A stretch of 39,568 nt of DNA from Candidatus Komeilibacteria bacterium (GTDB lineage: Bacteria; Patescibacteriota; Patescibacteriia; UBA1558; JAPLWL01), in assembly GCA_026396635.1 (NCBI GenBank), contig JAPLWL010000021.1:11928-51495 (forward strand), in the 5' to 3' direction. Within the stretch, counting starts at the first letter, position 1; each line of letters starts with the position of its first letter. Made by a program: the position numbers and the translations under genes. This document shows positions 2,161 through 31,302 of the stretch, piece by piece. The notes beneath the pieces were generated by a model. It saw nothing but the letters and a program-made list of their open reading frames with translations, was not told the DNA's origin and did no database searches.

Positions 2161-3744
2161 TTACGGACGTTTGGCCAAAAATCGCCAATATTTACCCAGC
2201 CAATTTTTAATTAAGGCAATTTCTTCACAATTAGTTAGTAAACTGGAGGCAAAATAAATTAAGACACCAACCAGTCCGGCGACTAAGCCTTGAGTGGCAA
2301 TTCCCCAAAAAGTATGCATATCAACTAGATTAGCCAAAATTCTTAAGACAATATAAACTCCTAGGCCAGCCAGTAAGGCATTAAAAGTAATTTTAATGGT
2401 GGCCCAGATAATTCGGCGGTCATCTAAGCGACCCAGTTTGAATTTTAGAAAAATATAAAGCAGGATTAATTGAGTAATACCGCCTGTAGTTTGGGCGGCA
2501 GCCAAGCCAATTACTCCGTAAACCGGCGCCAGATGCCAAGCTAAGTAAATAGTTAAACCAACATTAATTAAACTAATTAAAACTGGAGTAATGGTATCTT
2601 CGAGCGCATAAAAAACTCGGGCTAAAGTAGGTATTAAGCTTTGAGCAAACAAACCAATGGCAAACCAACCTAAGGTTTGAGCGGTCCAATAAGTCGCCTG
2701 CCAATCAAACTGACCAGCGCCTAGCACTACCCTAACAATCTGCGCGCGCAATAAAATAATAAAAACAGTTATGGGTACTGAAAAGAAAATAATTCGCCGC
2801 ACTGATAAAGAAAAAGTATCTTGGAAACGATCAGAGTTGCCATCCCGCAAAGTTTCGGCAAAAACCGGAAAAACCGCAATGGCCAAAGAAACGCCGACTA
2901 GGCCAATGGGTACGTTTTGCAAATTATCAGCTAAACGGTAAATGGCTAAACTGCCAGCCGCCATTTGGGTAGCCAACATGGTAATAATTATTTCAGTAAT
3001 TTGATTGCCGGCCAAACCAACAGTCCGGGGTCCCATTAACAAAAAAACTCGCTTAACTTCTTGGCTAATTTTAATAGAAAATTCCCACTGCCAGCCAACT
3101 TTCCTGGCTTCCCAAAATTGGATAGCCAGATGACCAAAAGCTCCTAACACTACACCCCAAGCCAAGCCGGTTAAGCCAAGCCAAGGATAAAACAATACGA
3201 TGCCCAAAATGATGCCTAAGTTATAAATAATTGGGGCGGCGGCAAAAGTGGCAAACCGACGCAAAGAATTTAGCATACCACCCACTACATTAGAAATTGC
3301 AAAAAAGACAATACTTAACAACATTATCCTGGTTAGCAAAATAGTATCAATTAACTGTTGGCCGCTAAAACCCGGAGCAATAAAACCCATTAATTGTGGA
3401 GCAATAACTAAAGCAACAATGGTTAGGGATAGTAAGATAATTAATAAAATATTTAAAACTGAATTGGCTAGGCGCCAGGCGGCCTTGGCATCATTTTGGT
3501 AAAGCTTGGTAAAAATTGGAATAAAAGCTGAGGCCAGGGCGCCTAGAATTAGAGTGTTAAAAATTAAATCCGGAATTTTGAAGGCGGCGTAATAACTGTC
3601 TAAAGTTGAACCAGCACCAAAATTAGCCGCCAGTAAACGATCTCTTAATAAACCGGCAATTTTGCTTAGAACCGAAAAAAGAGCAATTATTATTGCTCCT
3701 CCCGTTATACTAGCAGTTAATCTGGACCAAATTGACTTTGCCAT
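2161..3744 (-). CDS. murJ: lipid II flippase MurJ (MviN family)
   Basis: This is a 527-aa polytopic membrane protein with a typical MurJ N-terminus (ITGGAIIIALFSVLSKIAGLLRDRLLAANFGAGSTLDSYYAAFKIPD) and about 14 TM segments. Confidence 0.85.
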   Translation of the reverse strand: MAKSIWSRLTASITGGAIIIALFSVLSKIAGLLRDRLLAANFGAGSTLDSYYAAFKIPDLIFNTLILGALASAFIPIFTKLYQNDAKAAWRLANSVLNILLIILLSLTIVALVIAPQLMGFIAPGFSGQQLIDTILLTRIMLLSIVFFAISNVVGGMLNSLRRFATFAAAPIIYNLGIILGIVLFYPWLGLTGLAWGVVLGAFGHLAIQFWEARKVGWQWEFSIKISQEVKRVFLLMGPRTVGLAGNQITEIIITMLATQMAAGSLAIYRLADNLQNVPIGLVGVSLAIAVFPVFAETLRDGNSDRFQDTFSLSVRRIIFFSVPITVFIILLRAQIVRVVLGAGQFDWQATYWTAQTLGWFAIGLFAQSLIPTLARVFYALEDTITPVLISLINVGLTIYLAWHLAPVYGVIGLAAAQTTGGITQLILLYIFLKFKLGRLDDRRIIWATIKITFNALLAGLGVYIVLRILANLVDMHTFWGIATQGLVAGLVGVLIYFASSLLTNCEEIALIKNWLGKYWRFLAKRP

Positions 3745-3779
3745 GACCGGATTATAGTGATAAATCAGAATAAAATCAA

Positions 3780-6401
3780 CTATTTTTTAACTATATTTAG
3801 AATAATTTTTTCATCTTGAGTCTGGGTGTAGCTAATAGTTAATTGGCCCACTTCACTTTCTACTAGGGCGTTAGCTGGTGACTTATTAATGGTAACTTCA
3901 TAATTTTTAGGCCAGCTAAAATGGTTAATAATTTTTTGATTATTAAGGCCGGATTGTTTTTGAATCAGCAACTCATAGGTACCTTGTTTGGCTTGCGGCC
4001 AACCTAATTTATTAAGCCAATTTTTTAAGCGGTTGGTCTGCCATTGGATTAAGCCGCTCGGCAAATGGTAAACAAAACTCAAAGTTTTATTTTCACTAGG
4101 AGAGGTTAAGAGCCAGTTGCCAAAAGTTTTTTTACCAAATTCTTGATTGATGCTGGTTTGACTAATAGGGTCTTTGGTAATTTCCCCGCTAATCCGGAGG
4201 AGATCAGGATCCGAAGTTAAATAGCTGGCTGGTTTTTGAAAATTTTCTGGCGTCGGTAAAATTTGACCCGTTACTTTTAGAAGTTCGGCACTTAGGGGTG
4301 CATAAACTCTAATAAAAGAATTGTTTTGATTAAAGCTAAAGATGTCAGTTGGGATGGCTGATTGCTGAAAACGGTTAATTGATACAGTTTTTAAAATAGA
4401 ATCGTCGGAAGCAAAATTAATGTACTGTTCCAAAGTTTGAGCGGTATATTTATCACTTTTGCCGCCGCCAATGTTTTGAGTTATAGCTAAAGTATAATCG
4501 CCGGTAGTTGAAGCAATACGACCGGTCCACTGCCAAGCATCAGCTTTTTGCTCTAAATCTTGATTTTTAAAATAAAGCTGAACTTCTTTTTGTTTTAAAC
4601 CATTTAAAACTGTAGTCAGAAGACTAGTATATTTTTCTTTGGGCAAATTTTGCAGTCTGGCTAAAATAATTGGGGCGGCATCGGCAATGATTTGTTTAGG
4701 TTTATTTTCCACTTTGTCGTATTTAAATTCAACTTGTTTTTGCAGTTCATCAATAACATTTTTTTCATCAAGAGTAACTTGAAATTTAGGCAAAGTGACT
4801 GGGCCAACTAAATTTAACAATTTTGGCAATAAAGAAGCATTGATAGCAATGACGCCATCCGTGCTTGGTCCGCCAGCCTTTTCATAGAACCATTGGATTT
4901 TTTGAGCGTTAGCATTAAAGTCTGGCCACCAATTGGCATCTTGAGCCATCCAACGGCCACCCTTTCCTACTAATCGCATAGGCTCTGGGCTCATAGTATA
5001 GTTAGTGGCTTGGCCTTGAAGATCATAAAATCCACCACCAGGAATATCCATTTTGGCAATTTGACCATTACGTAAATCAACTTGGGCAAAACTACCTAAA
5101 AATCCACCGCCAGCCCGTAATTCACCTTCGTTCTGAAAAACAAGCAAGTAACGGCGTTCTTGATTGTAGCCCAAAATGTCATTTAATGAAGTTGTTAAAT
5201 CTTTTAATTGGCTTAGCTGGTTGATAAAATAAGGCAAAAATATTTTTAAGTCTTTAATTTGATTTTGATATTTTGTTGGTAAGCCAAAAGTAGACGCCTG
5301 CTGTAAAGAAGCATTAGCGGCTTGAGCTTGAGGCAAAAGATCGTCCAGCTGTTTTCTAGCCCAAGGTAATTGCTGGTCGGCGGATTGCTGTTGAGCCGTC
5401 CAAACAGCTAAACTGGTAGTAAATTGCTCAGCTAATTTGGTTAATTGAGTAGCGCCGGTAATTAAATAACTGGCACTTTCTAAAGGGTTTAAGCCAAATA
5501 AAACTTGCCGCAAATTGGCTTGAGTATTTTGGAGATAATCGGCGGCTTGAGTTAAGGAATTTTCAGCTGATTGAAATTTAATTAAGGCGCCTTCCCAATC
5601 AGCTGCCGTGGCCGCTTGGACTCCGGATTGCAAATCTCTGGCCGCGGTTTGGGAAATATTTACTAGTTGATCTTTAATAACATTAACTTTTTTGTAAAAA
5701 ACAAAGCCCTTGACCGGCATGACTAACAAAAAAGCAAAAACAATAAAGGTCAGGACAATTCTAATTCTTTCCAGCGAAGGTAGCCAAAGTAATGGGGGTT
5801 TTTCTATAAAAGCCGGCAGAGTTTTTTTCTTTAATTGAAATTTTGGAAATTTAAAAGCGACTTTATCTGGCCAGCGCAAAAAAGAGGAGGTTTGAACTGG
5901 AATGGGTTTGCCGGGAGTCGGTTCTTTAGGACGAACTATTTTTTCCGGCGGCCGCAAATCCAAAAGATGGCCAGATCTGTCTAGATGGTTTTGAATATTA
6001 ACTTCGGAAGTTTGGCCGTTTTTATCCAAGACAACCTTCCGATCTGTAATGGTAGCCAATTGTTTAGAAGTTAAGCTTGGCCAGGGCAGATCTTCCATTG
6101 GCGTTTTATTGGCTTCAACAGCAAAATCCCCTTCTTTGGCGGTTAATTCTTCCAAATCCCAAGCTAGTAACGGCGTAAATTCAGGTTCTATTTCTGTAGC
6201 CGGTTGTAAAAAATCAACCTCAACCGCCGAAATAGTGGTCCGTTGATGATGTAGGCTGTCGGCGGCAAAGGCGCTCCGACTAGACAAAAAAGACCTAGGG
6301 CCAATTTTGGTAGTGCTAGTTTTGGAAATGCCAATGGTTTTTTTACTAGAAGCCGCTGCTTTTTTCTTTGGTTCTGTATTTTTAATTTGTTTTGGCATCA
6401 A
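3780..6401 (-). CDS. DUF4012 domain-containing envelope protein (873 aa, single N-terminal TM anchor)
   Basis: There is a central TM segment (RIVLTFIVFAFLLVMPV). The motif ERRYLLVFQNEGELRAGGGFLGSFAQVDL matches the DUF4012 signature as I recall it. The N-terminus is Lys/Ser/Thr-rich. Confidence 0.7.
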   Translation of the reverse strand: MMPKQIKNTEPKKKAAASSKKTIGISKTSTTKIGPRSFLSSRSAFAADSLHHQRTTISAVEVDFLQPATEIEPEFTPLLAWDLEELTAKEGDFAVEANKTPMEDLPWPSLTSKQLATITDRKVVLDKNGQTSEVNIQNHLDRSGHLLDLRPPEKIVRPKEPTPGKPIPVQTSSFLRWPDKVAFKFPKFQLKKKTLPAFIEKPPLLWLPSLERIRIVLTFIVFAFLLVMPVKGFVFYKKVNVIKDQLVNISQTAARDLQSGVQAATAADWEGALIKFQSAENSLTQAADYLQNTQANLRQVLFGLNPLESASYLITGATQLTKLAEQFTTSLAVWTAQQQSADQQLPWARKQLDDLLPQAQAANASLQQASTFGLPTKYQNQIKDLKIFLPYFINQLSQLKDLTTSLNDILGYNQERRYLLVFQNEGELRAGGGFLGSFAQVDLRNGQIAKMDIPGGGFYDLQGQATNYTMSPEPMRLVGKGGRWMAQDANWWPDFNANAQKIQWFYEKAGGPSTDGVIAINASLLPKLLNLVGPVTLPKFQVTLDEKNVIDELQKQVEFKYDKVENKPKQIIADAAPIILARLQNLPKEKYTSLLTTVLNGLKQKEVQLYFKNQDLEQKADAWQWTGRIASTTGDYTLAITQNIGGGKSDKYTAQTLEQYINFASDDSILKTVSINRFQQSAIPTDIFSFNQNNSFIRVYAPLSAELLKVTGQILPTPENFQKPASYLTSDPDLLRISGEITKDPISQTSINQEFGKKTFGNWLLTSPSENKTLSFVYHLPSGLIQWQTNRLKNWLNKLGWPQAKQGTYELLIQKQSGLNNQKIINHFSWPKNYEVTINKSPANALVESEVGQLTISYTQTQDEKIILNIVKK

Positions 6402-6457: not shown

Positions 6458-7495
6458 CTATGATAAAATTTTAACTAGACCTAAATCGGCGTTTACTTCT
6501 ACCCTGTCTCCAGTTTTAAGGAGTTGAGTGGCAATTTTAGTGCCAACAATGCAGGGTTTTTTCAGCTCGCGGGCAATAATCGCGGCATGACAAGTTAAAC
6601 CGCCTTCATTGGTGATAATAGCTTTGGCCTTTTTTAGGGCCTGGATAAAGTCCGGCGAAGTCATGTCGGTTACTAAAATTTCGCCCACCTTTAATTTATT
6701 AATATCTTTTTTGTATCTAATTATTCTAACCTTGCCACTAACATTACCTCGAAAAGCAACAGAACCTTTAATAGCTTGGTTTTGAGCCTGAACAATTGTT
6801 TCCAGAGTTAGATTTTGATCAGCAAGTTTTTTCTTAAGACTAGGCAGCGTAAGAATTTGATGGTGAAAAATACCGTAACCCCGCGACCGTTTTTTAATGA
6901 TGTTAATAGTTTTAGAGTCAAATTTTTTATTTTGGACAGAAAAAACCTCGGCCGGAGTCACCAAATTGGCAATGATTTTATATTTGGGAAAATAGTAAGT
7001 AAAAAAATTTACAAATAACCTATCGCCGGCCTCGCCATATTCTTGCGTCTTTTCTCTAAGCTTGAGCAATTGCTTCCTGATAGCTAAGGGAATTTTAAGC
7101 AAATCAATGGCATCAAAAACAATGGCTTGGGTAGCCCACCAGCGTACCCATAACTGATAAAACTTTTTTAAATCAGTTATTGAGTTTATTTTTTTCTTAC
7201 CTTGATAATAAGCCAAGATAACTTTCCAACGAGCAGAAAACTCTTTAATTAGCTTTTTAGCTTCAATGGGCTTATTAATTTTTTTCACCTCGGCCGCATA
7301 AATTCGCGCCAATTCCTCTTTTTCATACCAAACAGAAATTTTATTGCTAGAATTTTCTTTTAAAAACAAATTATCTTTAACATCAAAATCAATCCACTTC
7401 TTAACAAAATAAGCATCCGAATCATGCCAGGCCCAGAAGTAAAATAAAGAATGTTCCCGGGTTAGCAACTTAGTGAGAACTTTTGGTTTTAGCAT
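6458..7495 (-). CDS. PEP-utilizer swivel (phospho-histidine) domain protein, paralogue 3 (345 aa)
   Basis: The C-terminus GEILVTDMTSPDFIQALKKAKAIITNEGGLTCHAAIIARELKKPCIVGTK is a PEP-utilizing enzyme mobile domain containing the carrier His. The N-terminal ~230 aa resemble those of ORF 7470-8561. The ORF overlaps the upstream gene by 26 nt. Confidence 0.8.
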   Translation of the reverse strand: MLKPKVLTKLLTREHSLFYFWAWHDSDAYFVKKWIDFDVKDNLFLKENSSNKISVWYEKEELARIYAAEVKKINKPIEAKKLIKEFSARWKVILAYYQGKKKINSITDLKKFYQLWVRWWATQAIVFDAIDLLKIPLAIRKQLLKLREKTQEYGEAGDRLFVNFFTYYFPKYKIIANLVTPAEVFSVQNKKFDSKTINIIKKRSRGYGIFHHQILTLPSLKKKLADQNLTLETIVQAQNQAIKGSVAFRGNVSGKVRIIRYKKDINKLKVGEILVTDMTSPDFIQALKKAKAIITNEGGLTCHAAIIARELKKPCIVGTKIATQLLKTGDRVEVNADLGLVKILS

Positions 7496-8561
7496 GGCGC
7501 TTTAAAATTTTAATGACGCCAGTGTTGGCGTTTAATTCTATTTGATCACCGGTTTTTAGCACTTCAGTTGCCACTTTAGTGCCGATAATGGTTGGTTTTT
7601 TTAACTCTCTAGCACTGATGGCCGCATGACACGTAATACCGCCTTCATCAGTAATAATGGCGGCAGCTTTCTTGATTGCCGGCAAATATCTAGGGTTGGT
7701 CATATGGGCCACTAAAATTTCGCCTGGTTTAAGGGTGTTAATTTCTGAAGTTAGGTTAACCACTCTAACTTTGCCAGTAACTTTTCCCTTAAAAGCAATT
7801 TGGCCAGTTAATTGATTAGTGGCCAGTGGTAAAGGATTAAATGACAGAGCCTTTATTTTATTTAATGGTTGCAGTTGGCTTTGTTGATAAATAAATCCTT
7901 GTTTTTTTCGTTGGTCAAAAGTTTTAAGTTGTAATTTAGAAAAAGGTTTATTAAATAAAGAAAAAACTTCGGCCGGAGTAATAATTTCCGCATATTGAGC
8001 GTATTTAGGGTATTGTTTTTTGAAAAAATCTAAAAACAAAAGCTCGCTATCATCAGAAAACTTTTCAGTTTGCTTTCTTAAATGTTTAGCTTCTGTCACT
8101 TGAGGCCCGCCAAAAGTTAAACTGTCTGGCGCCGGAATCCAGTAGATTAAAGACATCAGCGGCCACCAGGCAGTTAGGTTTTGATAAAACTTACCAAACT
8201 CTTTGATGGAACTGATTTTTCTGCCTTGGGCGTAAGGCTTAAGAGGTTGCCAATATTTGAGAAAGTATTTTTTAACCTTTGGAAAAAATTTATGATCTTT
8301 TAAAGTTTTGTCTCTAATAAGTTTGTCAAAATAATCTAATTCAGTTCGGTCATAATAAATTGTTATTAGCGGCGAAGCAGCTTTTTTAACAAATAAAACT
8401 TGAGCTAAGCCTTGACCTAGCCACTTCTTTAGTCCGAACCTATCTCCCTCTTCCCAAACCACACAACTGAATAGGGACAATTCCCGTTCAAACTGTCTAT
8501 CAAATAATAATTTTTTATCCAGCACTAAATTTTTAGTGCTGGATTTATTTTTTTGTTTCAC
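7470..8561 (-). CDS. PEP-utilizer swivel (phospho-histidine) domain protein, paralogue 2 (363 aa)
   Basis: The C-terminus is GEILVAHMTNPRYLPAIKKAAAIITDEGGITCHAAISARELKKPTIIGTK. The N-terminal region shares W-rich helices and the ITPAEVFSLF motif with 6458-7495. The ORF overlaps the upstream gene by 17 nt. Confidence 0.8.
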   Translation of the reverse strand: MKQKNKSSTKNLVLDKKLLFDRQFERELSLFSCVVWEEGDRFGLKKWLGQGLAQVLFVKKAASPLITIYYDRTELDYFDKLIRDKTLKDHKFFPKVKKYFLKYWQPLKPYAQGRKISSIKEFGKFYQNLTAWWPLMSLIYWIPAPDSLTFGGPQVTEAKHLRKQTEKFSDDSELLFLDFFKKQYPKYAQYAEIITPAEVFSLFNKPFSKLQLKTFDQRKKQGFIYQQSQLQPLNKIKALSFNPLPLATNQLTGQIAFKGKVTGKVRVVNLTSEINTLKPGEILVAHMTNPRYLPAIKKAAAIITDEGGITCHAAISARELKKPTIIGTKVATEVLKTGDQIELNANTGVIKILKRHAKTKSSH

Positions 8562-9429
8562 CGCAAGCTAATTGATTAATTAAATCTACTGACACTTCTT
8601 CGTCAAAATGAAAAAGTACTTGGCCATCTTTTTCTTTATGGTAAAAAACATGAATTTTTTGGCCGCCATCGGGCCCGGTATCAATAAATATTTTAAAACC
8701 TTCGGTGGGAGCAAAGTTTTCATCATCTAATAATTTAATTAATATGTCTCTTTGTTCTTTGCCCTTAAGTGTCTCAATAATTTTTAGTAAAAAAGCCTCC
8801 AGCATACCACCATGAGAACCAAAAAATCTAGACAGTACATTAGATGGGTATTTTTCCTGCTTAACTAACCTATCCCAAACCGGAGCAACTTTAAGATGCT
8901 TTTGTATAAACTTTGCCACTCGAGCCGACAAACGGCTATAAGTATAAACACTAGTAGTGTCACCCAATTCTTTAGCTAATTGATCACTTTCGTTGGTAAT
9001 AAATGATAAATAACCATCGCCATACCAATGTTCGGCCACTGCAGCGCCAAAAGGTCCGGAATAATCCATACTTAAATCCAACTCTGGATCAATGACAATT
9101 TTAGTACCGATTTTTAAAGTGGCATTTAATTTAGCTTTTAGCTCTTCAAAGCTTTCATCGCCGGTGATTTCCGCTTCAGCGCCGGCCATTTTTAATAGGG
9201 CTGAATGTGGCGCTCGTTCTCTTGGACTGCCAAAAGCCAAAGATTGTCTAATCTTACCTGGCTCAGCTTGTTTTTTTATAAAATGGCGTCCGGCCGGTGA
9301 TAACGGGTTGACAGAATCATCACTAAAAATATTTTCTTTTATGCTGTGTCTGAAAAAATCCAATTCAATTCTGGATTGATATTCTTTTTCTGGCTCCGGG
9401 CTGAGCAATGCCTCCTTAATTCTTTCCAT
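8545..9429 (-). CDS. histidine phosphatase superfamily (PGAM-like) protein
   Basis: The RHG-type motif appears as LDFFRHS, followed by LSPAGR and FGSPRERAPHSA (the SP..RA..TA pattern). The second catalytic His motif appears as FFGSHGGMLEAFL. Assignment is from motifs only. Confidence 0.6.
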   Translation of the reverse strand: MERIKEALLSPEPEKEYQSRIELDFFRHSIKENIFSDDSVNPLSPAGRHFIKKQAEPGKIRQSLAFGSPRERAPHSALLKMAGAEAEITGDESFEELKAKLNATLKIGTKIVIDPELDLSMDYSGPFGAAVAEHWYGDGYLSFITNESDQLAKELGDTTSVYTYSRLSARVAKFIQKHLKVAPVWDRLVKQEKYPSNVLSRFFGSHGGMLEAFLLKIIETLKGKEQRDILIKLLDDENFAPTEGFKIFIDTGPDGGQKIHVFYHKEKDGQVLFHFDEEVSVDLINQLACGETKK

Positions 9430-9430
9430 A

Positions 9431-10099
9431 TTATTTAGATTTTAAAATTTTAACTATACCATTGTTAGCATTTACTTCAATAAAATTTCCATTTTTTAAC
9501 ATTTTAGTAGCTAATTTAGTACCCACAATACACGGTATCTTAAATTCTCTGGAAATCAAAGCCGCGTGACTCATTAAACCGCCCTCATCAGTAACAATAG
9601 CGCTGGCTTTTCTGATGGCTGGCATCAATTCCGGACCAGTAGTTTCTGAAACTAAAATCTCGCCCTTTTTAAATTGTCTTAAGTAGTAGCTGGGATTATC
9701 TGATAAAGGAATAATCCTGACTTTTCCCCTAACTAAACCTTTGCAAGCAATGGTTCCGACCAATTCTTTGATAGTTAGTTTAGGGACTAACTGTTTGGCT
9801 AATTTTTTAACCTGGGCACCCGTTTTTATAATAACCTTATTAGACTTTAGCTGAGTTTGTAGACAAGAAGATATTTGGCGGTGATTTTGATTGTTAACTT
9901 TTTTGTTTCTAAGTAGATTTTTGACTTCGTCAACTGTCAAAGCAATAATATCGCGGCGGTTAGTTTTTTTAATAATAGCTATAACCAAACGGTCTAAAAC
10001 TGAATCTTGGCTTAAACAAAGTTTATTTAAAGGTCCTCTGATTTGAAATTTTAATTTTTGAATAGTTATTAAGTAACGAATCAGTCTTTGAGCTTGCAA
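9431..10099 (-). CDS. PEP-utilizer swivel (phospho-histidine) domain protein, paralogue 1, C-terminal fragment (222 aa, TTG start in the ORF track)
   Basis: The C-terminus is GEILVSETTGPELMPAIRKASAIVTDEGGLMSHAALISREFKIPCIVGTK. The segment ALTVDEVKNLL aligns with ITPAEVFSLF and VTPAEVFSVQ of the paralogues. Confidence 0.75.
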   Translation of the reverse strand: MQAQRLIRYLITIQKLKFQIRGPLNKLCLSQDSVLDRLVIAIIKKTNRRDIIALTVDEVKNLLRNKKVNNQNHRQISSCLQTQLKSNKVIIKTGAQVKKLAKQLVPKLTIKELVGTIACKGLVRGKVRIIPLSDNPSYYLRQFKKGEILVSETTGPELMPAIRKASAIVTDEGGLMSHAALISREFKIPCIVGTKLATKMLKNGNFIEVNANNGIVKILKSK

Positions 10100-10110
10100 C
10101 GGTAAATGAT

Positions 10111-10533
10111 TTATTGTAATTGAGTTTGATTTGGAATGAGCTGAGTAAGTTCTTTTTCAATTTTGATAAAATTAAAATATTCGGTTTGCTTGTAAAAAAT
10201 AAAGGCTTGTTGAATTGATTTTTGAAATTGATCCAAAGCCAATATTAGCTCTTTATTTGAAAGAACACGGTGGTATTGTAGTTTGAGAATCGGCCTTAAC
10301 TCTTTTAGAGATTTTTTATAGCCTTGTTTTAGTTTTATTAAGATGTTTTTAGTTAAAGCCTGTTTAAAACCAGCATTAGCCAGTTGAGTTAAGGAATTGT
10401 GCGGAAAAAACATTTCCATGCGGTTGTGATCAAATAATGCCAAAGGTTGTTCTTTTTTATAACATGGTAAATATATGCTCATGAAAAAGACACTGGAAAA
10501 ATTGATTTTAAAAATTGATTCGTATTTGATCAT
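10111..10533 (-). CDS. N-terminal fragment of swivel-domain paralogue 1 (140 aa)
   Basis: Its length plus the 222-aa ORF (362 aa) equals the paralogue length of 345-363 aa. It has similar hydrophobic and aromatic helices. It makes an ATGA overlap with the upstream ATP-grasp gene. It is in a different frame from 9431-10099. Confidence 0.55.
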   Translation of the reverse strand: MIKYESIFKINFSSVFFMSIYLPCYKKEQPLALFDHNRMEMFFPHNSLTQLANAGFKQALTKNILIKLKQGYKKSLKELRPILKLQYHRVLSNKELILALDQFQKSIQQAFIFYKQTEYFNFIKIEKELTQLIPNQTQLQ

Positions 10534-11480
10534 TTCTTTTTGACTAAAGTTGTAATCGGCCGGGATTGGACAATATAAAATTTACCTTTTTCATAAGCCC
10601 ATTCAATGTCGCAAGGAAAATTATAGTGTTTTTCAATTTGGCAGATAATCTTACTCAATTTGATGATTTGGGCATCTGTTAGGGCCTGTTTTTGGCCTTT
10701 GGAGACGGATATTGCCTGCCATTTTGAACCGCCAATAGAGGTTTTATACAATCCCCGTTCTTGGACACTAATATTTTTATCAATAATCCGTAAAGGCTTT
10801 TTTTCTACCACATAACTATCCGGAGTAATACTCCCTGAAACAATGGCTTCACCCAAGCCAAATCCGGCCTCTATAATTAATTGGTTATAATCTTCAGTGA
10901 CCGGGTGCACGGAAAAGGCAATACCAGAAACTTCCGATTGCACCATTTTTTGAACTACCACGGCCACAGAGATTTTTTGCTGATGAAGTTTTTTCTCAAA
11001 CCGGTAAAAAATAGCGCGAGGCGTAAACAAAGACGCCCAACATCTTTTAACATTTTCTAATAATGTTTTATTGGTAGTATTAAGAAAGCTGTCTAATTGA
11101 CCAGCCCAAGCAGCTGAAGCAGAGTCTTCGGCGGTGGCTGAAGATCTGACTGCCACAAATTTAGTATTTAATTTTTTAAAAAACTTTTGAATGTCACTGG
11201 CAATTTCCTTAGGCATTTTGGCCCGCAAAATCAAAGCTTGGATTTTGGCTGAAGCCTGTTCTACTGTGTCAATTTTTTTAATATTGACTGAATGCAAAAT
11301 AGAGTCTATTTCTACATTAAGATCAGTTTCGTCCAAAAACTTTTCAAAACTGTCAGCTAAAATTACAAAGCCTGGCGGCACCGGAATACCGACTTGGGTC
11401 ATTTCACCTAAAGAAGCGCCCTTGCCACCAGCCTGATCCACATCTGACTTAGATAATTTTTTAAAATCTTTAATATACAT
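10530..11480 (-). CDS. stand-alone PPDK/PEP-synthase N-terminal ATP-grasp (nucleotide-binding) domain protein (316 aa)
   Basis: Diagnostic motifs are GGKGASLGEM, VAVRSSATAEDSASAAWAGQLDSFLN, VAVVVQKMVQSEVSGIAFSVHPVT, IIEAGFGLGEAIVSG and DIEWAYEKGKFYIVQSRPIT. The protein has no swivel domain and no TIM-barrel domain. Confidence 0.85.
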   Translation of the reverse strand: MYIKDFKKLSKSDVDQAGGKGASLGEMTQVGIPVPPGFVILADSFEKFLDETDLNVEIDSILHSVNIKKIDTVEQASAKIQALILRAKMPKEIASDIQKFFKKLNTKFVAVRSSATAEDSASAAWAGQLDSFLNTTNKTLLENVKRCWASLFTPRAIFYRFEKKLHQQKISVAVVVQKMVQSEVSGIAFSVHPVTEDYNQLIIEAGFGLGEAIVSGSITPDSYVVEKKPLRIIDKNISVQERGLYKTSIGGSKWQAISVSKGQKQALTDAQIIKLSKIICQIEKHYNFPCDIEWAYEKGKFYIVQSRPITTLVKKK

Positions 11481-12302
11481 TTATTTTATTTGATTTAATA
11501 ATCTCAACCACTCTTGGCCAAAAGTTTGCCAAGAAAAACGCTGACAGTTAATAAACCCAGCTTGACGCAATCTGTCGGCACAACTTGAATCATTAACAAA
11601 CTCTTGCCAGGCAGCTAATAACGATTCTTGCTGTTTTGGATGAAAATAAATAACTGATTCGCCTAAAATTTCCGGCAAACAAGAAGCATTAGAGGAAATC
11701 ACCGGACAATTAAGATTTTGTGCTTCTAAAGGCGGAATGCCAAAACCTTCGTATAAACTTGGGAAAATTAAAGCCTGGGCTTGTTTGTATAAAGTTGTTA
11801 ATTGCAAATCCGTGGCTTCGCCAAAAAAGATTACCGAAAAATCGCGAGTTTGTTTTTTTAATTGGCTATAAAAATAATCTGATCGGCCTACTAAAACTAA
11901 CTGATAATTATTTTGCTGATTAAATTTAGTCCAAGTTTTAATTAAAAATTCTAAATTTTTATGAGGATAGGCCGCGCCAACATACAAAAAGAAAGGTTTA
12001 TTAATAACATTTGGTAATTCCACTAAGGCATCAGCTAGGTTGGATAATTCTTTGCCTTCGTAAATAACTAAAACCTTAGACGGTTTTAAACCCAAAGTTT
12101 TAATTACATCCTGGCGTACAAATTCGGTTGGTACAATAATCTTTTCGGCCCGCAATGCACTAATAACCAAAAGCATTTTAGATAAATAGACTTTAAGCCA
12201 GTAAATTGGCTTAGGTAGAGTTGTGGCTCGCGATCCCGGAAAATGCCAAATAGTTAAATCATGAATAACCATCCAAAACTTAACCGGACAAAATAACGGC
12301 AC
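11481..12302 (-). CDS. GT4 glycosyltransferase, C-terminal fragment of a frameshifted gene
   Basis: VIHDLTIWHFP and FPSLYEGFGIPPLEAQNLNCPVISSNASCLPEILG are GT4/GT-B motifs. The ORF-track start is a GTG. The N-terminus of the same gene lies in ORF 12254-12517. Confidence 0.8.
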   Translation of the reverse strand: MPLFCPVKFWMVIHDLTIWHFPGSRATTLPKPIYWLKVYLSKMLLVISALRAEKIIVPTEFVRQDVIKTLGLKPSKVLVIYEGKELSNLADALVELPNVINKPFFLYVGAAYPHKNLEFLIKTWTKFNQQNNYQLVLVGRSDYFYSQLKKQTRDFSVIFFGEATDLQLTTLYKQAQALIFPSLYEGFGIPPLEAQNLNCPVISSNASCLPEILGESVIYFHPKQQESLLAAWQEFVNDSSCADRLRQAGFINCQRFSWQTFGQEWLRLLNQIK

Positions 12303-12517
12303 ATTAAAATGAGGAAAAATTCAAAAATACTATACCAGCGCCACGGCCATTGTTTAGCTGATAAGCCGCTAAAATAATCCAGCTGATCTTTTGAATAATA
12401 GTAATAAGTTAATTGATGAGTTTGCTGTAATCTAAGTCCTTTGACTAATTCTAAAACATAGCGGCCAATACCACGATGACGAGTCCCAATCATTCTAGCG
12501 TCAACACCTATTTTCAT
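12254..12517 (-). CDS. GT4 glycosyltransferase, N-terminal fragment of the same frameshifted gene
   Basis: MKIGVDARMIGTRHRGIGRYVLELVKGL is a typical GT4 N-terminus. I chose the ATG at 12517, which overlaps the upstream gene's end (12501) by 17 nt. The reading frame is lost at the homopolymer at 12315-12319. Confidence 0.7.
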   Translation of the reverse strand: MKIGVDARMIGTRHRGIGRYVLELVKGLRLQQTHQLTYYYYSKDQLDYFSGLSAKQWPWRWYSIFEFFLILMCRYFVRLSFGWLFMI

Positions 12518-13649
12518 ATATATCTTTAAAGTAATTATACAGTTCCTGGGCGGTTTTTGACCAGGTAAATTCTCTAGCCCTTTCATAAGCCGGGATTAAT
12601 AAATGATCAGACTTATTAGGATTTTGAATAAAATCAGTTAGGGTCTTAGTTAGTGATTCTAAATTTTGAGGATCAACATAAATGGCATTATCACCCATTA
12701 ATTCCGGCAAGCTGGTAGTTTGGCTGCAAATAACCGGGCATTTTGAAGCCGCAGCTTCTAAAACCGGAAAACCAAAACCTTCATGTAGGCTAGGAAAGAT
12801 AAAAGCCTGGGCGGCTTGATACAAAGCCGGACGATCTTCGTCAGCCACATAACCCAAAAATTTAACCTTTGAGCTGGCCCCTAATTTTTCAACATAATTA
12901 ATCAAACTGCGATCTTTAATGTGCCCGGCAATAACTATTTGATACTCGCCTAGTTGATTTTTTTCTTTTAATTTAGCCAAGCTCTCAATAATCAATTTAA
13001 CATTTTTCCTTTTCATGACATCTCCCAAGAATAAAAAGTATTTTTCTGGCAATAAATATTTAGTTTTAACTTGAGTTAGAGTTTCATTTGACGCTGTTTG
13101 AAAAAATTTTTCTTCAATCCCTGGATAAATCACTCTAATTTTTTCGGCCGGGACATTAAACAATTTAATCATTTCCTGCTTGGTATGTTCGGAAACCGCC
13201 ACAAAATAATCAAAATAGTTGGTTAATTTTTTTGCTAAGAGCACGTGCCAAAGCCGCTCTTTCCAAGGATACCACTGGGGCTGAATTAAAAAAGAACAAT
13301 CGTGAATAGTGACTATTCGTTTAGTTTTACCATTGGCAGCTTTTTTGTTAACAAAAGTCAGATTGGGAAACCAAATTAAATCAGGATTATTAACTAAGCT
13401 TTCAAATTTTGGCCAATTAAAAAAACGCTCTAAAGGCGTAAAAAATTTGTTAGGGATCCGGTACCGAAATAATTCAGCACCTGAGCCAATCAATTCATCC
13501 ACTTGATGATTTAGACTAAAACGATTATCAAAAAAAGACCATTTTACTCCGGGTAAACTTTTAAGCTGTTTAACCAGGGCGGCGGTATAATAGCCCACTC
13601 CGGACCACGGCTGGTAACCCAAAGAACGCAGATCAACGTTAATTTTCAT
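12501..13649 (-). CDS. GT4 family glycosyltransferase
   Basis: Motifs are TIHDCSF and FPSLHEGFGFPVLEAAASKCPVICSQTTSLPELMG. Length is 382 aa. Confidence 0.85.
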   Translation of the reverse strand: MKINVDLRSLGYQPWSGVGYYTAALVKQLKSLPGVKWSFFDNRFSLNHQVDELIGSGAELFRYRIPNKFFTPLERFFNWPKFESLVNNPDLIWFPNLTFVNKKAANGKTKRIVTIHDCSFLIQPQWYPWKERLWHVLLAKKLTNYFDYFVAVSEHTKQEMIKLFNVPAEKIRVIYPGIEEKFFQTASNETLTQVKTKYLLPEKYFLFLGDVMKRKNVKLIIESLAKLKEKNQLGEYQIVIAGHIKDRSLINYVEKLGASSKVKFLGYVADEDRPALYQAAQAFIFPSLHEGFGFPVLEAAASKCPVICSQTTSLPELMGDNAIYVDPQNLESLTKTLTDFIQNPNKSDHLLIPAYERAREFTWSKTAQELYNYFKDIYENRC

Positions 13650-13654
13650 AATCT

Positions 13655-14740
13655 TTAATGGAGCCTGCTTTCAATATATTCGCCCATTTCTTTTAAAAAC
13701 CTTTCCTGGCTAAATTTTTGAGCATAAGCTTGAATTGCCGCCGGATCAAATTGCTTAAAATCAAAACGTAAAACCGCGTCAACCAAGCTTTCCCAAGTTT
13801 GTTCTTTAAAAAAGGTACCGGAAACGCCTTCAATAACGCTTTCCAAAGCTCCGCCGGCCTGATAAGCAATAACTGGCGTGCCGGCCGCCATGGCCTCTAC
13901 TGCCGCAATGCCAAAATCTTCTTCCTGTGGGTGAATAAAGGCTTTAGCGTGCTGTAAAATTTTATTCCGTTCAAAGTCTGGAAGCTCACCTAAAAATTCC
14001 ACATTGGATTTGGCTAAGGCTTGTAGTCTGACTAATTCTTCGCCGCCGCCAATAACTTTAAGCGGTAAGCCAAGCTGATTAAAAGCCTTAATAACCAAGT
14101 CCACTCTTTTATAGGGCCTTAATCGTCCAACAACCACAAAATAATTTTCTTTTTCTTTTATGGCTGGACTAAATTGACTAACATTAACCGGCGGATAAAT
14201 AACCACAGAATCCCGGCCGTAATATTTTTTAATCCGACTGGCAATAAAGTTTGAATTGGCAATAAAATAGTCTACCCGCTGGGCAGCGGACCAATCCCAT
14301 TGCCTGAGCCAAGTTAAAACAAAGGGCAAGATCTTTTTAACAATTCTATTCTGAGGCAAATCCTCTACGTATTGATGAGTGTCGGACCACAGATAACGAG
14401 TGGGCGTGTGGCAATAACAAAAGTGTTTAACGTGAGTAGAGGTCACAATCCCCTTGCAAAAAGCTGAAGTAGAAGATAAAACCGCATCATAGTTAGAAAA
14501 ATCAAACTGTTCCCAAAAAGTCGGCATCGCCCATAGGTACCATTTTAAATGATTGTAAGCGCCCGGCCATTTAGTTAGCCCGGATTCAATAATTTTAGTG
14601 CCGGTAAAAAAATTACGGCTTTCCGGCCCGGCCAACAAAGTATAAATCGGGCTGGCCGGATACAATTTAACCAACTCTTTTAAAACATGCTCGGCACCGC
14701 CAATTTGTAATAAGTGATCATGGACTAAAGCAACTTTCAT
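13655..14740 (-). CDS. GT4 family glycosyltransferase
   Basis: Motifs are MKVALVHDHLLQIGGAEHVL and EEDFGIAAVEAMAAGTPVIAYQAGGALESV. Length is 361 aa. Confidence 0.85.
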   Translation of the reverse strand: MKVALVHDHLLQIGGAEHVLKELVKLYPASPIYTLLAGPESRNFFTGTKIIESGLTKWPGAYNHLKWYLWAMPTFWEQFDFSNYDAVLSSTSAFCKGIVTSTHVKHFCYCHTPTRYLWSDTHQYVEDLPQNRIVKKILPFVLTWLRQWDWSAAQRVDYFIANSNFIASRIKKYYGRDSVVIYPPVNVSQFSPAIKEKENYFVVVGRLRPYKRVDLVIKAFNQLGLPLKVIGGGEELVRLQALAKSNVEFLGELPDFERNKILQHAKAFIHPQEEDFGIAAVEAMAAGTPVIAYQAGGALESVIEGVSGTFFKEQTWESLVDAVLRFDFKQFDPAAIQAYAQKFSQERFLKEMGEYIESRLH

Positions 14741-14745
14741 AATTT

Positions 14746-16137
14746 TTATTCAGCTGTCCTCCGGCGCAAGATAGTTAACGGAGTTTTTAATAAAATTTGT
14801 AAATCTAAACCAATTGACCAATTTTCAATATAATATAAATCCAACTTAACCTCTTCTTCCCAAGGTAAATCGCTGCGGCCGGAAATTTGAGCCAAACCAG
14901 TTAAGCCTGGTTTGATGGCCAGTAACCGGCGATCATCAGTGCGATAGCGTGAAACTTCTTCTGGTTCATGAGGGCGCGGGCCCACCAAGCTCATCTGACC
15001 AACTAAGATATTAAACAATTGCGGTAATTCATCCAGGCTAAAACGTCTTAGCCATTTGCCCACTTGAGTAATTCTTGGATCATTCTTCATTTTAAATAAC
15101 GGCCCATCACGGCGTTCGTTAAATTGGTTTAATTGGCCAGATAATTTTATTTCATGAGCATTTATTACCATAGATCTAAACTTGTATAAGCCAAAAAGTT
15201 GCCGTTTAGCCCCAATACGATTTAACCGAACAAAAACCGGGCCTCTAGAATCCAACTTAATAATTATGGCCAAAATAATAAAAATTGGTAATAAAATTAT
15301 AATGCCCAACAAAGAAATAATTAAATCACAAATTCTTTTGACTACCCGGCCCCAGCCATCCAAAGGCGTTTCTTTGCAGCTAACCAAGGGCAAGCCGGCC
15401 ACAAAATCAAATTCTACCCTACTAGAACGAGTAGCTAGTAATGGCGTGGCATATTTGAATGTTAGATAGTGATTAAGACAATATTTTTGCACTTCAATCA
15501 GCTCTTCTTCCTGGCCGTGGGCTAAATAGATTAATTCATCAGCTGGCTCTTTTAAAAGTAATTGATTGAGTTCATTTTTTGTTGTTTCAGACCATTCGGA
15601 GTATTCTCCGGCTAATCTAAAACCAAAAGATGGATGATAAAAAAATTCTTCTTTAAGTCTAAGTCTGGCTTCGGCTTGACCCACGACTACTATTCTAGTA
15701 ACTCCGTAGCCTTTGTAGTAAAAAATTTTCTTAATTAAATGAACCGCTAATCGTTCTAAGGAAATATAGACAACGGCGGCTAGCCAAGCAGCCAAAATAA
15801 TAAAACGAGAGGAAAATAATTGGGTGTTAAAAAAGAAGGCCACTACAATAATTAAAGTGGCGGCTGAACAGCTAATAAAAATTTTAGTTAAATCAGAAGT
15901 AATTTTCCGTCGACGAAAACTGTACAAACCACTTAAGGCAAAAATTATCAGCCAATATGGAATAATCATTAAGCTGATAATAATAAACTTATGATAGGGT
16001 AAATTAAAAATAACCGGCATTAAGTCGGTAACAAAAGTTTGAAAACGCAAGCCGTAAGCGCTTAAGCCGGCTAAAAATAATCCTACAAAATCAAGCGGGA
16101 CTAACAGGGTGGTAAAAAGTAATTCGGATTTTTTCAT
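14746..16137 (-). CDS. polyprenyl-phosphate sugar phosphotransferase (WbaP/EpsL-type bacterial sugar transferase)
   Basis: There are N-terminal TM helices and a C-terminal sugar-transferase domain (KRICDLIISLLGIIILLPIFIILAIIIKLDSRGPVFVRLNRIG...YKFRSM...LDELPQLFNILVGQMSLVGPRPH). I moved the start to MKKSELLF at 16137, because the longer ORF (to 16263) overlaps the RNase P RNA. Confidence 0.85.
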   Translation of the reverse strand: MKKSELLFTTLLVPLDFVGLFLAGLSAYGLRFQTFVTDLMPVIFNLPYHKFIIISLMIIPYWLIIFALSGLYSFRRRKITSDLTKIFISCSAATLIIVVAFFFNTQLFSSRFIILAAWLAAVVYISLERLAVHLIKKIFYYKGYGVTRIVVVGQAEARLRLKEEFFYHPSFGFRLAGEYSEWSETTKNELNQLLLKEPADELIYLAHGQEEELIEVQKYCLNHYLTFKYATPLLATRSSRVEFDFVAGLPLVSCKETPLDGWGRVVKRICDLIISLLGIIILLPIFIILAIIIKLDSRGPVFVRLNRIGAKRQLFGLYKFRSMVINAHEIKLSGQLNQFNERRDGPLFKMKNDPRITQVGKWLRRFSLDELPQLFNILVGQMSLVGPRPHEPEEVSRYRTDDRRLLAIKPGLTGLAQISGRSDLPWEEEVKLDLYYIENWSIGLDLQILLKTPLTILRRRTAE

Positions 16138-16181
16138 ATCAAGGATACGCCCTATTCTATTGCTAAAGGAAGTAAATAGCT

Positions 16182-16653: not shown

Positions 16654-16659
16654 GACTAT

Positions 16660-16688
16660 AATATAATATAAAATTGATTAGTTGTCAA
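16660..16688 (-). promoter_or_regulatory. sigma70-type promoter of rnpB (TTGACA-17-TATATT)
   Basis: On the minus strand, TTGACA is at 16688-16683, followed by a 17-nt spacer and TATATT at 16665-16660. That places a start about 6-7 nt downstream, at the first base of P1. The -35 box overlaps the stop codon of the upstream GT4 gene. Confidence 0.6.
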
Positions 16689-23634: not shown

Positions 23635-23643
23635 GACCAATAT

Positions 23644-31301: not shown

Positions 31302-31302
31302 A

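Follow-up and report, generated by a model that had tools for sequence, protein, structure and literature searches.

A putative dikinase block with one ATP-grasp domain, three swivel modules and a histidine-phosphatase-fold protein, a small example of the multi-module arrays of ultra-small bacteria and archaea

Gene layout and domains of the block

[quoted passage not shown] Re-derivation of the ORFs returned six minus-strand frames with the coordinates and the zero-gap or overlapping junctions given in an earlier note on this DNA (Table 1). The stop codon of the ORF upstream of A begins at 11481 and adjoins the start of A at 11480, while A and B1 share an ATGA overlap (10530-10533) in which the start of B1 lies within the stop codon of A. 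B2 and C are separated by a 1-nt gap at 9430, and the C/D and D/E pairs overlap by 17 nt (8545-8561) and 26 nt (7470-7495), respectively. Upstream of this cassette, on the same strand, are four GT4 genes and a Bac_transf priming transferase (11481-17797), and downstream, also on the same strand, DUF4012 and MurJ (2161-6401).

Table 1. Features of the dikinase block, with window positions
Feature	Position	Strand	Support
A: ATP-grasp nucleotide-binding domain, 316 aa	10530..11480	minus	PF01326, E-value 5e-100
B1: N-terminal part of the module B acceptor (central) domain, 140 aa	10111..10533	minus	
B1/B2 open-frame overlap zone, frameshift site interrupting module B	10114..10156	minus	
B2: C-terminal remainder of the acceptor domain, then swivel phospho-His domain, 222 aa, TTG start	9431..10099	minus	PF00391
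C: divergent histidine-phosphatase-fold protein (predicted), 294 aa	8545..9429	minus	Family profile and AF2/Foldseek
D: stand-alone module, short-class acceptor plus swivel, 363 aa, GTG start	7470..8561	minus	PF00391
E: stand-alone module, short-class acceptor plus swivel, 345 aa	6458..7495	minus	PF00391

HMM searches placed PF01326 on residues 15-314 of A, which had no other relevant Pfam match and holds the sole ATP-grasp domain in the window, and PF00391 on the C-termini of B2 (E-value 3e-23), D (2e-24) and E (3e-25), the distribution that had been predicted. The quoted motifs were all found, including those with the carrier histidines: GGLMSHAAL in B2 (His178, codon 9566-9568), GGITCHAAI in D (His312, codon 7626-7628) and GGLTCHAAI in E (His303, codon 6587-6589). 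A Pfam scan gave no match to the PEP/pyruvate TIM barrel (PF02896) in the six proteins or in 36 further ORFs of the window, in agreement with the absence of this domain claimed before. Protein A aligned end to end with residues 4-316 of RPH-Lm (5fbs), the rifampin phosphotransferase (RPH) of Listeria, and PEP synthases were matched too.

D and E are intact modules that lack an ATP-grasp domain, and C, D and E each have orthologues in other genomes at 40-52% identity. Custom-built HMMs for the N-domain (Ndom, 1.8e-65) and the swivel (3.8e-49) both matched D, whose best N-domain relative, 52% identical, lies in another locus. The AF2 model of E (pLDDT 95.4, pTM 0.91) is a single compact unit with the swivel packed against the N-domain, and its top Foldseek matches in the PDB were the RPH-Lm structures 5fbt and 5fbu (E-value 5e-11, ~278 columns spanning N-domain and swivel); the TM-score is modest (0.42), and the swivel contributes some of the match. 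At the sequence level, neither the RIF-binding domain nor the central domains of HpeH and PpsA were similar to the N-domains, and NCBIfam and PDB matches covered the terminal domains only. Swivels are ~105 aa long and 54-60% identical among the window modules, whereas the N-domains, the acceptors (~230-250 aa, with a second class of ~380 aa), are 20-33% identical. Since the swivels are conserved whereas the acceptor domains are divergent and RPH-like in fold, modules B, D and E look functionally distinct. The description of one ATP-grasp domain accompanied by three carrier modules, each with a different N-domain, is upheld.

Interruption of module B and its fused relatives

The reading frames of B1 and B2 differ, with an overlap of their open stretches, and the remaining two frames of the B1 region are full of stops. 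A word-indexed search of 5.8e9 protein clusters returned no homologue of B1 but itself. When B1 and B2 were merged, hhalign found them colinear with residues 29-364 of the D/E family profile (probability 100%), which indicates one module cut by a frameshift and not two genes. A fused 681-aa protein of locus L020 shares 74% identity with A in its N-terminal part, and its residues 462-678 align with B2. The closest relatives (74% identity) have ATP-grasp, central domain and swivel (A-X-S) in one protein of 681-694 aa, against a sum of 678 aa for A+B1+B2, and fused proteins of 681-833 aa occur in L020, L028, L080, L010, L014, L022 and L054. The A|B1 junction falls in an A-rich run and is one A-run indel away from fusion, and in the same contig frameshifts split at least three further genes (GT4, RecJ and probably holB).

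Most probably, A, B1 and B2 are one ~680-aa three-domain gene that one or two frameshifts in the assembly interrupt, with A probably forming the N-terminal third of this A-X-S gene. The earlier claim that the ATP-grasp domain of the window is a stand-alone subunit is therefore doubtful, given the fused relatives, the junction and the other split genes. If A-B is one gene, the block consists of four genes, namely A-B, C, D and E; if the frameshift in module B were real, the core module would be a pseudogene.

Multi-module arrays and the histidine-phosphatase-fold partner

The comparison set comprised 160 related loci, found in bacteria of the CPR and in DPANN archaea, with counts covering the stretch fetched per locus. 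These loci carry arrays of 2-12 swivel modules with one ATP-grasp domain or none on the stretch fetched, and never two; where at least three swivel domains were present, one ATP-grasp domain was found in 36 loci, none in 24 and two in no case. The GGxxxH motif is kept in 423 of 436 swivel domains, the best match of an N-domain lies in another locus for 403 of 412 N-domains, and the modules of one locus almost never fall in a common 30%-identity cluster. A single frame of 3768 aa (L093:6875-18178) contains one PPDK_N and eight PEP-utilizers domains, and another single polypeptide (L097:8852-17758) contains one PPDK_N and six. In L005, a 341-aa module and a C homologue come after a 1363-aa protein with one ATP-grasp domain and three modules, so that the parts of the window recur there in a similar arrangement, except that the C gene is last in L005 and between modules in the window. 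Many other loci likewise join one ATP-grasp domain with extra modules. Ultra-small bacteria and archaea widely possess multi-module arrays, of which the window block is a small example; the multi-carrier idea is strongly supported by these arrays and by the single proteins with six or eight modules. No description of such arrays (up to 8 modules per protein) was found in the literature.

Protein C alone gave no Pfam or NCBIfam match. It carries an FFRHS motif (R27-H28, H28 codon 9346-9348), with RHS instead of RHG, and in alignment A2 all 16 sequences share the RH residues, R70, R72 and H206; the RH motif follows the first beta-strand, and further downstream come a second cluster of Arg and an invariant His. 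Among 15 C homologues, five have a precomputed PF00300 match. The C family profile matched the SixA-like 3f2i (E-value 5.7e-4), known histidine phosphatases scoring weakly (E-value ~1e-4), and the Foldseek matches of the AF2 model (pLDDT 84.8) were all histidine phosphatases at TM 0.3-0.4, so that profile and fold matches are restricted to this superfamily. On its family profile and model, C is predicted to be a divergent histidine-phosphatase-fold enzyme, and the phosphatase partner of the earlier note is borne out, although it is divergent and took a family profile and structure prediction to recognise.

The C family is almost never found away from these dikinases. A swivel or ATP-grasp domain lies within 1.5 kb in 33 of the 34 C-family loci with both flanks, a swivel domain ends at most 200 nt upstream of C in 47 of the 62 C loci with upstream room, and of the 80 genome-survey loci that have modules, 11 contain C. 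In 1225 locus pairs, C and swivel always aligned (45% and 52% identity), while the C-adjacent acceptor domain aligned in 82 pairs only. Because the linkage of C to the core dikinase gene does not depend on the acceptor domain, C would act on something common to the systems. Most likely it would reset or regulate the phospho-His swivel in the manner of SixA; dephosphorylation of the products is less likely. Placed next to a dikinase, a phosphatase might set up a futile cycle.

Proposed function, alternatives and known systems

On balance, the block is probably a small-molecule dikinase system of the RPH/HpeHI type, in which one ATP-grasp domain charges three modules, each with its own substrate. 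A would bind ATP and pass the beta-phosphate to the conserved swivel His, with AMP and Pi as by-products; the phospho-His swivel would then dock on the preceding, largely helical RPH-like acceptor domain of the same polypeptide and hand the phosphate to a small molecule bound there. Because there is a single ATP-grasp domain, with conserved swivels and strongly diverged acceptors, it most likely charges B, D and E. Module B would be charged in cis or as the immediate neighbour, while A would charge D and E in trans, as gene order and the fused relatives suggest, and each of the three modules may phosphorylate a different substrate. Charging in trans has a precedent in HpeHI, CreHI and PpsAB, whose ATP-grasp component is separate, and HpeH alone moves phosphate between substrates (PMC12167813). 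As the window covers only 39.6 kb of the genome, another ATP-grasp domain could exist elsewhere.

The envelope-glycan or lipid-linked acceptor first suggested from the neighbours, with glucan-water-dikinase-like modules acting on a cell-surface polysaccharide or carrier as part of a GT/DUF4012/MurJ cluster, was not sustained and is quite unlikely: the cassette does lie between GT4/Bac_transf genes and DUF4012/MurJ, and GT4 is beside a few other loci, but the flanks are not conserved. The commonest flanking family occurs at 10 of ~160 loci and GT4 at 6 of ~160, other loci having UvrB/RmuC, TrmB/MFS, LeuRS or recombinases as neighbours; Pfam revealed no carbohydrate-binding module in any module, and the N-domain resembles a small-molecule-binding domain. 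It is unlikely as well that the ORFs are the decaying remains of an ordinary fused PEP-synthase or RPH-like gene devoid of multi-subunit function. The match of A+B1+B2 to single fused proteins, the different frames of B1 and B2 inside one domain and the A-rich junction speak for such fragments in A-B, but D and E, like C, are intact with orthologues elsewhere, D and E are no pieces of a fused PEP synthase, and there is no PF02896 domain to make an ordinary PEP synthase. Furthermore, one ATP-grasp domain with several modules and C recurs in L005, extra modules occur at many loci, and the splitting of RecJ and probably holB, normally indispensable genes, suggests errors of assembly and not decay.

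A phosphorelay from the swivel His~P to His28 of C, with C as the real phosphotransferase or mutase and the helical N-domains serving for docking or regulation, is similarly improbable. Phosphoglycerate-mutase-superfamily enzymes act through a phospho-His on the RHG histidine, and the position of C genes, nearly always directly after a swivel-domain gene, and their conservation whatever acceptor domain precedes are consistent with a relay. However, the scarcity of C among the genome-survey loci implies that most arrays work without it, and the N-domains are RPH-like, with the swivel of the confident E model packed against the N-domain, the usual arrangement of an acceptor site. Very improbable is reverse running for energy harvest, by which phosphate from host metabolites would be loaded onto the His and the ATP-grasp domain would make ATP from AMP and Pi. 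PPDK or PEP synthase work in the ATP-forming direction in some anaerobes and archaea, but the water-dikinase reaction with ordinary phosphoesters is strongly exergonic in the ATP-consuming direction, no sign of high-energy phosphoryl donors was found, and the associated phosphatase would waste phosphate. On the side of reversal, organisms of the CPR and DPANN groups are presumably energy-limited scavengers, and the second half-reaction of HpeH is reversible (PMC12167813).

Several known systems are close to the block or to parts of it. Among histidine phosphatases (SixA, PhoE/PGM-like, TIGAR, CobC), C shares the RH motif, the second Arg cluster and the downstream His, but it has 294 aa with large insertions, low TM-scores and a near-exclusive occurrence beside these dikinases. 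In sequence, PEP synthases have the ATP-grasp and swivel domains most like those found here, and D and E carry GGxTCHAA with the regulatory-type Thr of PEP synthase/PPDK; unlike in those enzymes, the TIM barrel is missing and the swivel, instead of being central, lies on the C-terminal side of a largely helical domain. RPH (RPH-Lm, PDB 5FBT/5HV1; NF041857, PRK06241 group) has the order of the fused relatives, and probably of A-B, namely ATP-grasp, acceptor and C-terminal swivel; it is also the best structural match of module E and aligns with the whole of A. However, the RPH NCBIfam score is far below the curated cut-off (299 bits vs 999) and covers the two end domains only, the central domain has a window counterpart of half the size, and RPH offers no counterpart to the extra modules or to the phosphatase partner.

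The splitting of the RPH architecture into subunits, described in the earlier note, is already known. HpeHI (Rhodococcus), CreHI (Corynebacterium) and phenylphosphate synthase PpsAB (Thauera) are two-component small-molecule dikinases in which a separate ATP-grasp component serves a separate component, in which a substrate-binding domain is N-terminal and a swivel His domain C-terminal; the two components are RPH homologues, and the reaction is ATP -> AMP + Pi + X-P (PMC12167813). The block shares with them this pairing of RPH-homologous components, and at -2 from the His, module B carries the Met of HpeH and RPH, whereas D and E keep the PEP-synthase-type Thr there. Those systems pair 1:1, have a ~530-aa substrate domain, act on phenolic compounds and belong to catabolic operons; in the window, one ATP-grasp domain faces three modules, and up to 8-12 in the relatives, with shorter acceptors dissimilar in sequence to HpeH/PpsA, in CPR and DPANN hosts and with a histidine-phosphatase-fold partner.

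Domain content and reading frames of the window cassette

Analysis of the minus strand at 6458-11480 recovered six ORFs, with the coordinates and every junction as an earlier note on this DNA had given them, and with one ATP-grasp domain against three swivel modules, as counted there. Pfam and NCBIfam scans revealed PF01326 on the 316-aa protein A (E-value 5e-100, no other relevant match) and PF00391 on the C-termini of B2, D and E (E-values 3e-23 to 3e-25), both as expected beforehand, and gave no match for B1 and C. The reported lack of a PEP/pyruvate TIM barrel was also borne out, PF02896 being absent from the six proteins and from the 36 other ORFs covering the window.

Coordinates of features in the window and of the main multi-module proteins in related loci
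Feature	Position	Strand	Description
A	10530-11480	-	316 aa, ATP-grasp
B1	10111-10533	-	module B, first part
B2	9431-10099	-	module B, second part; carrier H178
C	8545-9429	-	294 aa, probable histidine-phosphatase fold
D	7470-8561	-	module; carrier H312
E	6458-7495	-	module; carrier H303
GT4 glycosyltransferase, apparently split	12254-12586 and 11481-12302	-	110 aa, N-terminal (MKIGVDARMIG...), and 273 aa (Glycos_transf_1)
RecJ, split	29994-31334 and 29659-29991	-	446 aa (DHH/DHHA1) and 110 aa (RecJ_OB, other frame)
holB, probably split	28405-28914 and 28049-28435		DNA_pol3_delta2 part and 128-aa part
MreB paralogues	17806-18819 and 22609-23640		two copies
PBP2-type transpeptidase	19420-21369		
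Urocanase	35674-37329	+	three Pfam domains
Woesearchaeota locus L093	6875-18178		single frame of 3768 aa, 1 PPDK_N and 8 PEP-utilizers (Pfam)
DPANN archaeon locus L097	8852-17758		single frame of 2969 aa, 1 PPDK_N and 6 PEP-utilizers (Pfam)
Locus L005			1363-aa protein (1 ATP-grasp and 3 modules), then 341-aa module and C homologue

Each module comprises an acceptor domain followed by a C-terminal swivel domain, in which B2, D and E each carry the GGxxxH motif. Overall identity between D and E is 39%, and the swivel domains of the window share 54-60% identity as against only 20-33% for the N-domains; alignment of the module family revealed four nearly invariant residues, R13, R147, E183 and R203. 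The family of the E-type N-domain is small: of 1.84 billion representative proteins searched, 178 representative clusters matched it with an E-value up to 1e-3, and many of the matches are multi-module giants of 1000-1800 aa. The AlphaFold2 model of E (pLDDT 95.4, pTM 0.91) showed a domain of about 235 aa, which begins with a short beta-sheet, continues as a helical bundle and packs on the swivel domain. The best PDB matches of this model were the RPH-Lm (rifampin phosphotransferase) structures 5FBT, 5FBU and 5HV1 (E-value 5e-11, about 278 aligned columns, covering N-domain and swivel). Pyruvate kinase, PPDK and Enzyme I ranked after them and were matched via the swivel alone. At the sequence level, the N-domain gave no match to the RIF-binding domain, and the NCBIfam alignments to the RPH and PRK06241 models covered, besides the swivel, no more than about 50-60 residues ahead of it.

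B1 and B2 lie in different frames, with open stretches overlapping at 10114-10156. The merged sequence is colinear with residues 29-364 of the module family profile (hhalign probability 100%), indicating that B is one module of about 365 aa cut by a frameshift. Single chains of ATP-grasp, central domain and swivel were found in related loci with 681 aa (L020), 686 aa (L028) and 694 aa (L080), and in longer versions of 800 aa (L010), 809 aa (L014), 811 aa (L054) and 833 aa (L022); A, B1 and B2 together amount to 678 aa. The N-terminal part of the L020 protein is 74% identical to A, its residues 462-678 align with B2, and the A|B1 junction (gtcaaaaagaaATGAtcaaatac) is one A-run nucleotide short of an in-frame fusion. 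A word-indexed search of 5.8e9 protein clusters returned no B1 homologue beyond B1 itself, and an HMM built from the central domains of four relatives missed it because these domains are barely alignable with each other; the identity of B1 is therefore based on colinearity and on a short resemblance, seen by eye, between its start and that of the L020 central domain (YES...S(I/S)YL). Taken together, A and module B are probably one gene.

The ATP-grasp subunit had been described as stand-alone, and this was only partly sustained: the 316-aa ORF does carry PF01326 alone, but its closest relatives are fused, a single A-run indel separates it from fusion and other genes of the contig are split, which makes its status in the window uncertain. 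Of the 84 ATP-grasp domains in the related loci, 40 have a reading frame to themselves. In L015 (4690-4780), the ATP-grasp gene ends with TGA and is followed, after a 15-nt spacer, by the ATG of a module gene in the same frame, and separate ATP-grasp versions do genuinely occur outside the window. The L015 arrangement could be a true pair of genes, or its TGA a candidate read-through stop. As to the other split genes, the open frames of the two GT4 halves overlap by 64 nt and their combined length is close to that of the intact 382-aa GT4 paralogue adjoining them; this gene, too, appears to be split by a frameshift. The frame-splitting of normally indispensable genes suggests assembly indels rather than decay. 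A search for independent assemblies of the A/B region yielded only a 2.5-kb Logan contig with D and E, and A, B2 and C had no other record. The window is a modest, partly frame-damaged example, the value of which is as a pointer to a wider class.

Two further observations concern the remainder of the window. The MreB paralogues, together with MreC and the PBP2-type transpeptidase, amount to a complete rod-shape module, here in the genome of a CPR bacterium and located beside a polysaccharide gene cluster. The urocanase gene is the only sizeable plus-strand gene with a Pfam match in an otherwise minus-strand window. Only in the stretch where it lies does the G+C content rise to 0.45-0.47, from about 0.38 in the remainder, which may reflect horizontal acquisition or a chimeric join.

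Arrays of modules in related loci

The survey covered 80 metagenome loci fetched via the C family, including some near-duplicates, and 80 GTDB-genome loci fetched via the module family. Six-frame translations, as stop-to-stop frames instead of curated gene calls, were scanned with our own HMMs for ATP-grasp, short N-domain, swivel and C; as all loci were retrieved with queries from this family, the frequencies refer to family members and not to genomes at large. According to record titles, 48 of the 80 genome loci belong to named CPR lineages and 11 to DPANN or unnamed archaea, the rest being MAGs with generic or probably automatic labels.

The modules were found to form same-strand arrays. 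The largest module cluster per genome locus contained one module in 25 loci, two in 15, three in 12, four in 9, five in 6 and 6-12 in 13, and about 13 swivel domains were present on 21 kb in L092. The spacing between swivels was bimodal (700-800 nt and 1000-1250 nt), in keeping with two sizes of acceptor domain, about 246 aa and about 379 aa. Among the loci with at least three swivel domains, 36 had one ATP-grasp, 24 had none on the fetched stretch and no locus had two. The parts of L005 are the same as those of the window and their arrangement is similar.

The GGxxxH motif was kept in 423 of 436 swivel domains. The idea that Thr as opposed to Met/Leu at -2 separates the swivels into two functional classes was rejected, Thr being found in about two-thirds of every positional class. 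The acceptor domains formed 172 clusters at a threshold of at least 30% identity, and two modules of one locus fell in the same cluster in just 10 of 89 multi-module loci. A recent origin of array modules by tandem duplication was likewise rejected, as 403 of 412 acceptor domains had their best match in another locus; on these sequence comparisons, they appear to be old paralogues.

Conserved neighbours were sought as pointers to the substrate. Clustering of 919 flanking ORFs revealed no neighbour family in more than 10 loci; the families detected comprised EPSP-synthase-like/HTH proteins, serine recombinases, LeuRS, GT4, TrmB, PIN and HAD. A fixed pathway context was rejected, since flanking genes are not conserved among loci, and so was a role in anti-phage defence, PADLOC having returned no matches. 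The earlier idea of a glucan-water-dikinase-like reaction was not supported: the six proteins had no CBM or starch-binding Pfam match, and other loci do not share the setting among glycan genes. In eight loci (L076:10840-12249 and seven others), large serine recombinases (Resolvase, Recombinase, Zn_ribbon_recom) were observed directly beside the dikinase/C cassette, and the cassette may therefore be mobile, which would fit its sharing between CPR bacteria and DPANN archaea.

Protein C and its possible role

A word-indexed search revealed 15 homologues of C, five of which carry a precomputed PF00300 match, and the metagenome scan added 97 further C-encoding loci. R27-H28 (in the FFRHS motif), R70, R72 and H206 are invariant in 16 sequences of the family, so that C has the RH-type motif and the partner Arg, Arg and His residues of the histidine phosphatase superfamily, with the motif being RHS, RHG, RHD or RHN and not strictly RHG. 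The family profile matched the SixA-like 3F2I (E-value 5.7e-4) and PhoE/PGM-type phosphatases across the RH...R region. Foldseek searches with the AlphaFold2 model (pLDDT 84.8) gave matches with E-values up to 0.001 that all belong to this superfamily, as did the other named matches where recognised among the best 50. They include Legionella acid phosphatase, TIGAR, mycobacterial hydrolases, CobC and SixA, with modest scores (E-values down to 6e-5, TM 0.3-0.4). The original phosphatase call for C is, on these grounds, reasonable for a divergent member.

C hardly occurs away from these dikinases. Of the 62 loci with room upstream, 47 have the end of a swivel domain no more than 200 nt upstream of C, and in 33 of the 34 loci that extend at least 1.5 kb to either side, a swivel or ATP-grasp is found inside that distance. 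The common core of C loci is ATP-grasp, central domain and swivel, followed by C. C was present in just 11 of the 80 module loci from genomes.

What C acts on may be judged from its conservation. In 52 loci with the order acceptor domain, swivel, C (1225 non-redundant pairs), C aligned in all pairs (median identity 45%), as did the swivel (52%), and the adjoining acceptor domain aligned in just 82 pairs (24% identity). Such conservation regardless of the acceptor domain suggests that C recognises something common to all systems, and we favour the reading that C would act, in the manner of SixA, as a phospho-His phosphatase and so reset or regulate the swivel. The main alternative is that C would instead dephosphorylate the product, which is analogous to the kinase, carboxylase and dephosphorylation logic of the Hpe pathway (PMC12167813). 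The C family would be a new branch of histidine phosphatases, possibly a phospho-His phosphatase for swivel domains. Separately, HAD-family hydrolases were observed inside six arrays (L113:11282-11893 and five other loci) and ordinary His_Phos_1 proteins near two (L001:11558-12148; L007:8944-9624); with this recurrence, dephosphorylation seems to have been linked to these dikinases more than once, by enzymes of unrelated folds.

A proposed shared ATP-loading step and its relation to known dikinases

The ratio of one ATP-grasp to many swivels, the giant single chains and the conservation of swivels as opposed to the divergence of acceptor domains indicate that, most likely, one ATP-grasp would load several modules, each with its own acceptor specificity. 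In the window, A, the only ATP-grasp on the part of the genome covered, would charge module B in cis or from an adjoining gene, and modules D and E in trans. The large driving force of the dikinase reaction suits high-affinity scavenging, as noted for HpeHI of Rhodococcus (PMC12167813), and also the irreversible inactivation of toxic compounds, as with RPH. The present systems may serve either use, with neither favoured. Our overall proposal, held tentatively and with somewhat less than even confidence, is that CPR and DPANN may share an undescribed class of dikinase in which a single ATP-grasp charges 2-12 paralogous swivel-His modules, separate or in one chain of up to 3768 aa, each with a different RPH-like acceptor domain and a subset having its own histidine-phosphatase-fold partner for resetting the phospho-His. 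Genome-reduced episymbionts would thereby possess a multi-specific irreversible phosphorylation device, with which they trap metabolites that they scavenge or inactivate toxic small molecules from the host, and the window would be a three-module example.

If one ATP-grasp does serve many modules, this is a new way to build an enzyme, in which a shared, expensive ATP-loading step feeds a battery of diversified, substrate-specific phosphotransfer modules. The hosts are the two great radiations of ultra-small, host-dependent prokaryotes, and in some genomes with a size of about 1 Mb the arrays take up 10-15 kb, which implies that they matter for an episymbiotic way of life. They may plausibly serve to scavenge metabolites, to detoxify antibiotics of the host or to do something else. 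The current labels "PEP-utilizing enzyme" and "phosphoenolpyruvate synthase" mislead metabolic reconstructions of CPR and DPANN.

A multi-carrier split system had been thought to be undescribed. Splitting as such is known, and the one-to-many arrangement is absent from the literature searched: publications on PEP-utilizing enzymes, PF00391, PPDK_N, RPH or swivel domains in CPR, Patescibacteria and DPANN describe no such arrays, nor the short acceptor domains, the phosphatase partner or the CPR/DPANN distribution, and one resistome survey just counts rph-like matches in Microgenomates. To our knowledge, the RPH-type dikinases characterised so far have only 1:1 fused or two-component forms.

Several assignments to known enzymes were considered. 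PEP synthase and PPDK were rejected, since, unlike in these enzymes, no PF02896 follows the swivel. A PTS Enzyme I-like reading, which would account for a helical domain joined to a swivel, was also rejected, as Enzyme I matches via the swivel only and well below RPH. The proteins are not members of the curated RPH, PigC, PEP-synthase or PpsA-like families, with scores far under the cut-offs and central domains unmatched. Against the RPH models (NF041857 / NF000283; cut-off 999), A scored 298.8 bits and B2 76.4 bits, with the end domains alone matching, and the fused relatives likewise remained below the cut-off with matches to the end domains alone.

RPH-type small-molecule dikinases are a large family, the substrates of which are mostly unknown, and the RPH central domain contains a catalytic Arg-Glu/Lys block and RIF-contacting residues (Stogios et al., 2016). 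In RPH and in the two-component HpeHI, CreHI (Corynebacterium) and PpsAB (Thauera), the ATP-grasp moves the beta- and gamma-phosphates of ATP to the swivel His, the gamma-phosphate is hydrolysed, and the phospho-His domain swings and phosphorylates a small molecule bound to the acceptor domain, the net reaction being ATP + X + H2O -> AMP + Pi + X-P (PMC12167813; Stogios et al., 2016). HpeHI further demonstrates that an ATP-grasp is able to serve a separate swivel-bearing protein (PMC12167813). By analogy, the present system would work as an RPH/HpeHI-type dikinase. Like the second component of HpeHI, CreHI and PpsAB, the window modules have an RPH-like acceptor domain followed by the swivel His, although their acceptor domain is shorter than that of HpeH and not alignable to it in sequence. 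Whereas those systems pair their components 1:1, the window combines one ATP-grasp with three modules, and its relatives carry up to eight in one chain.
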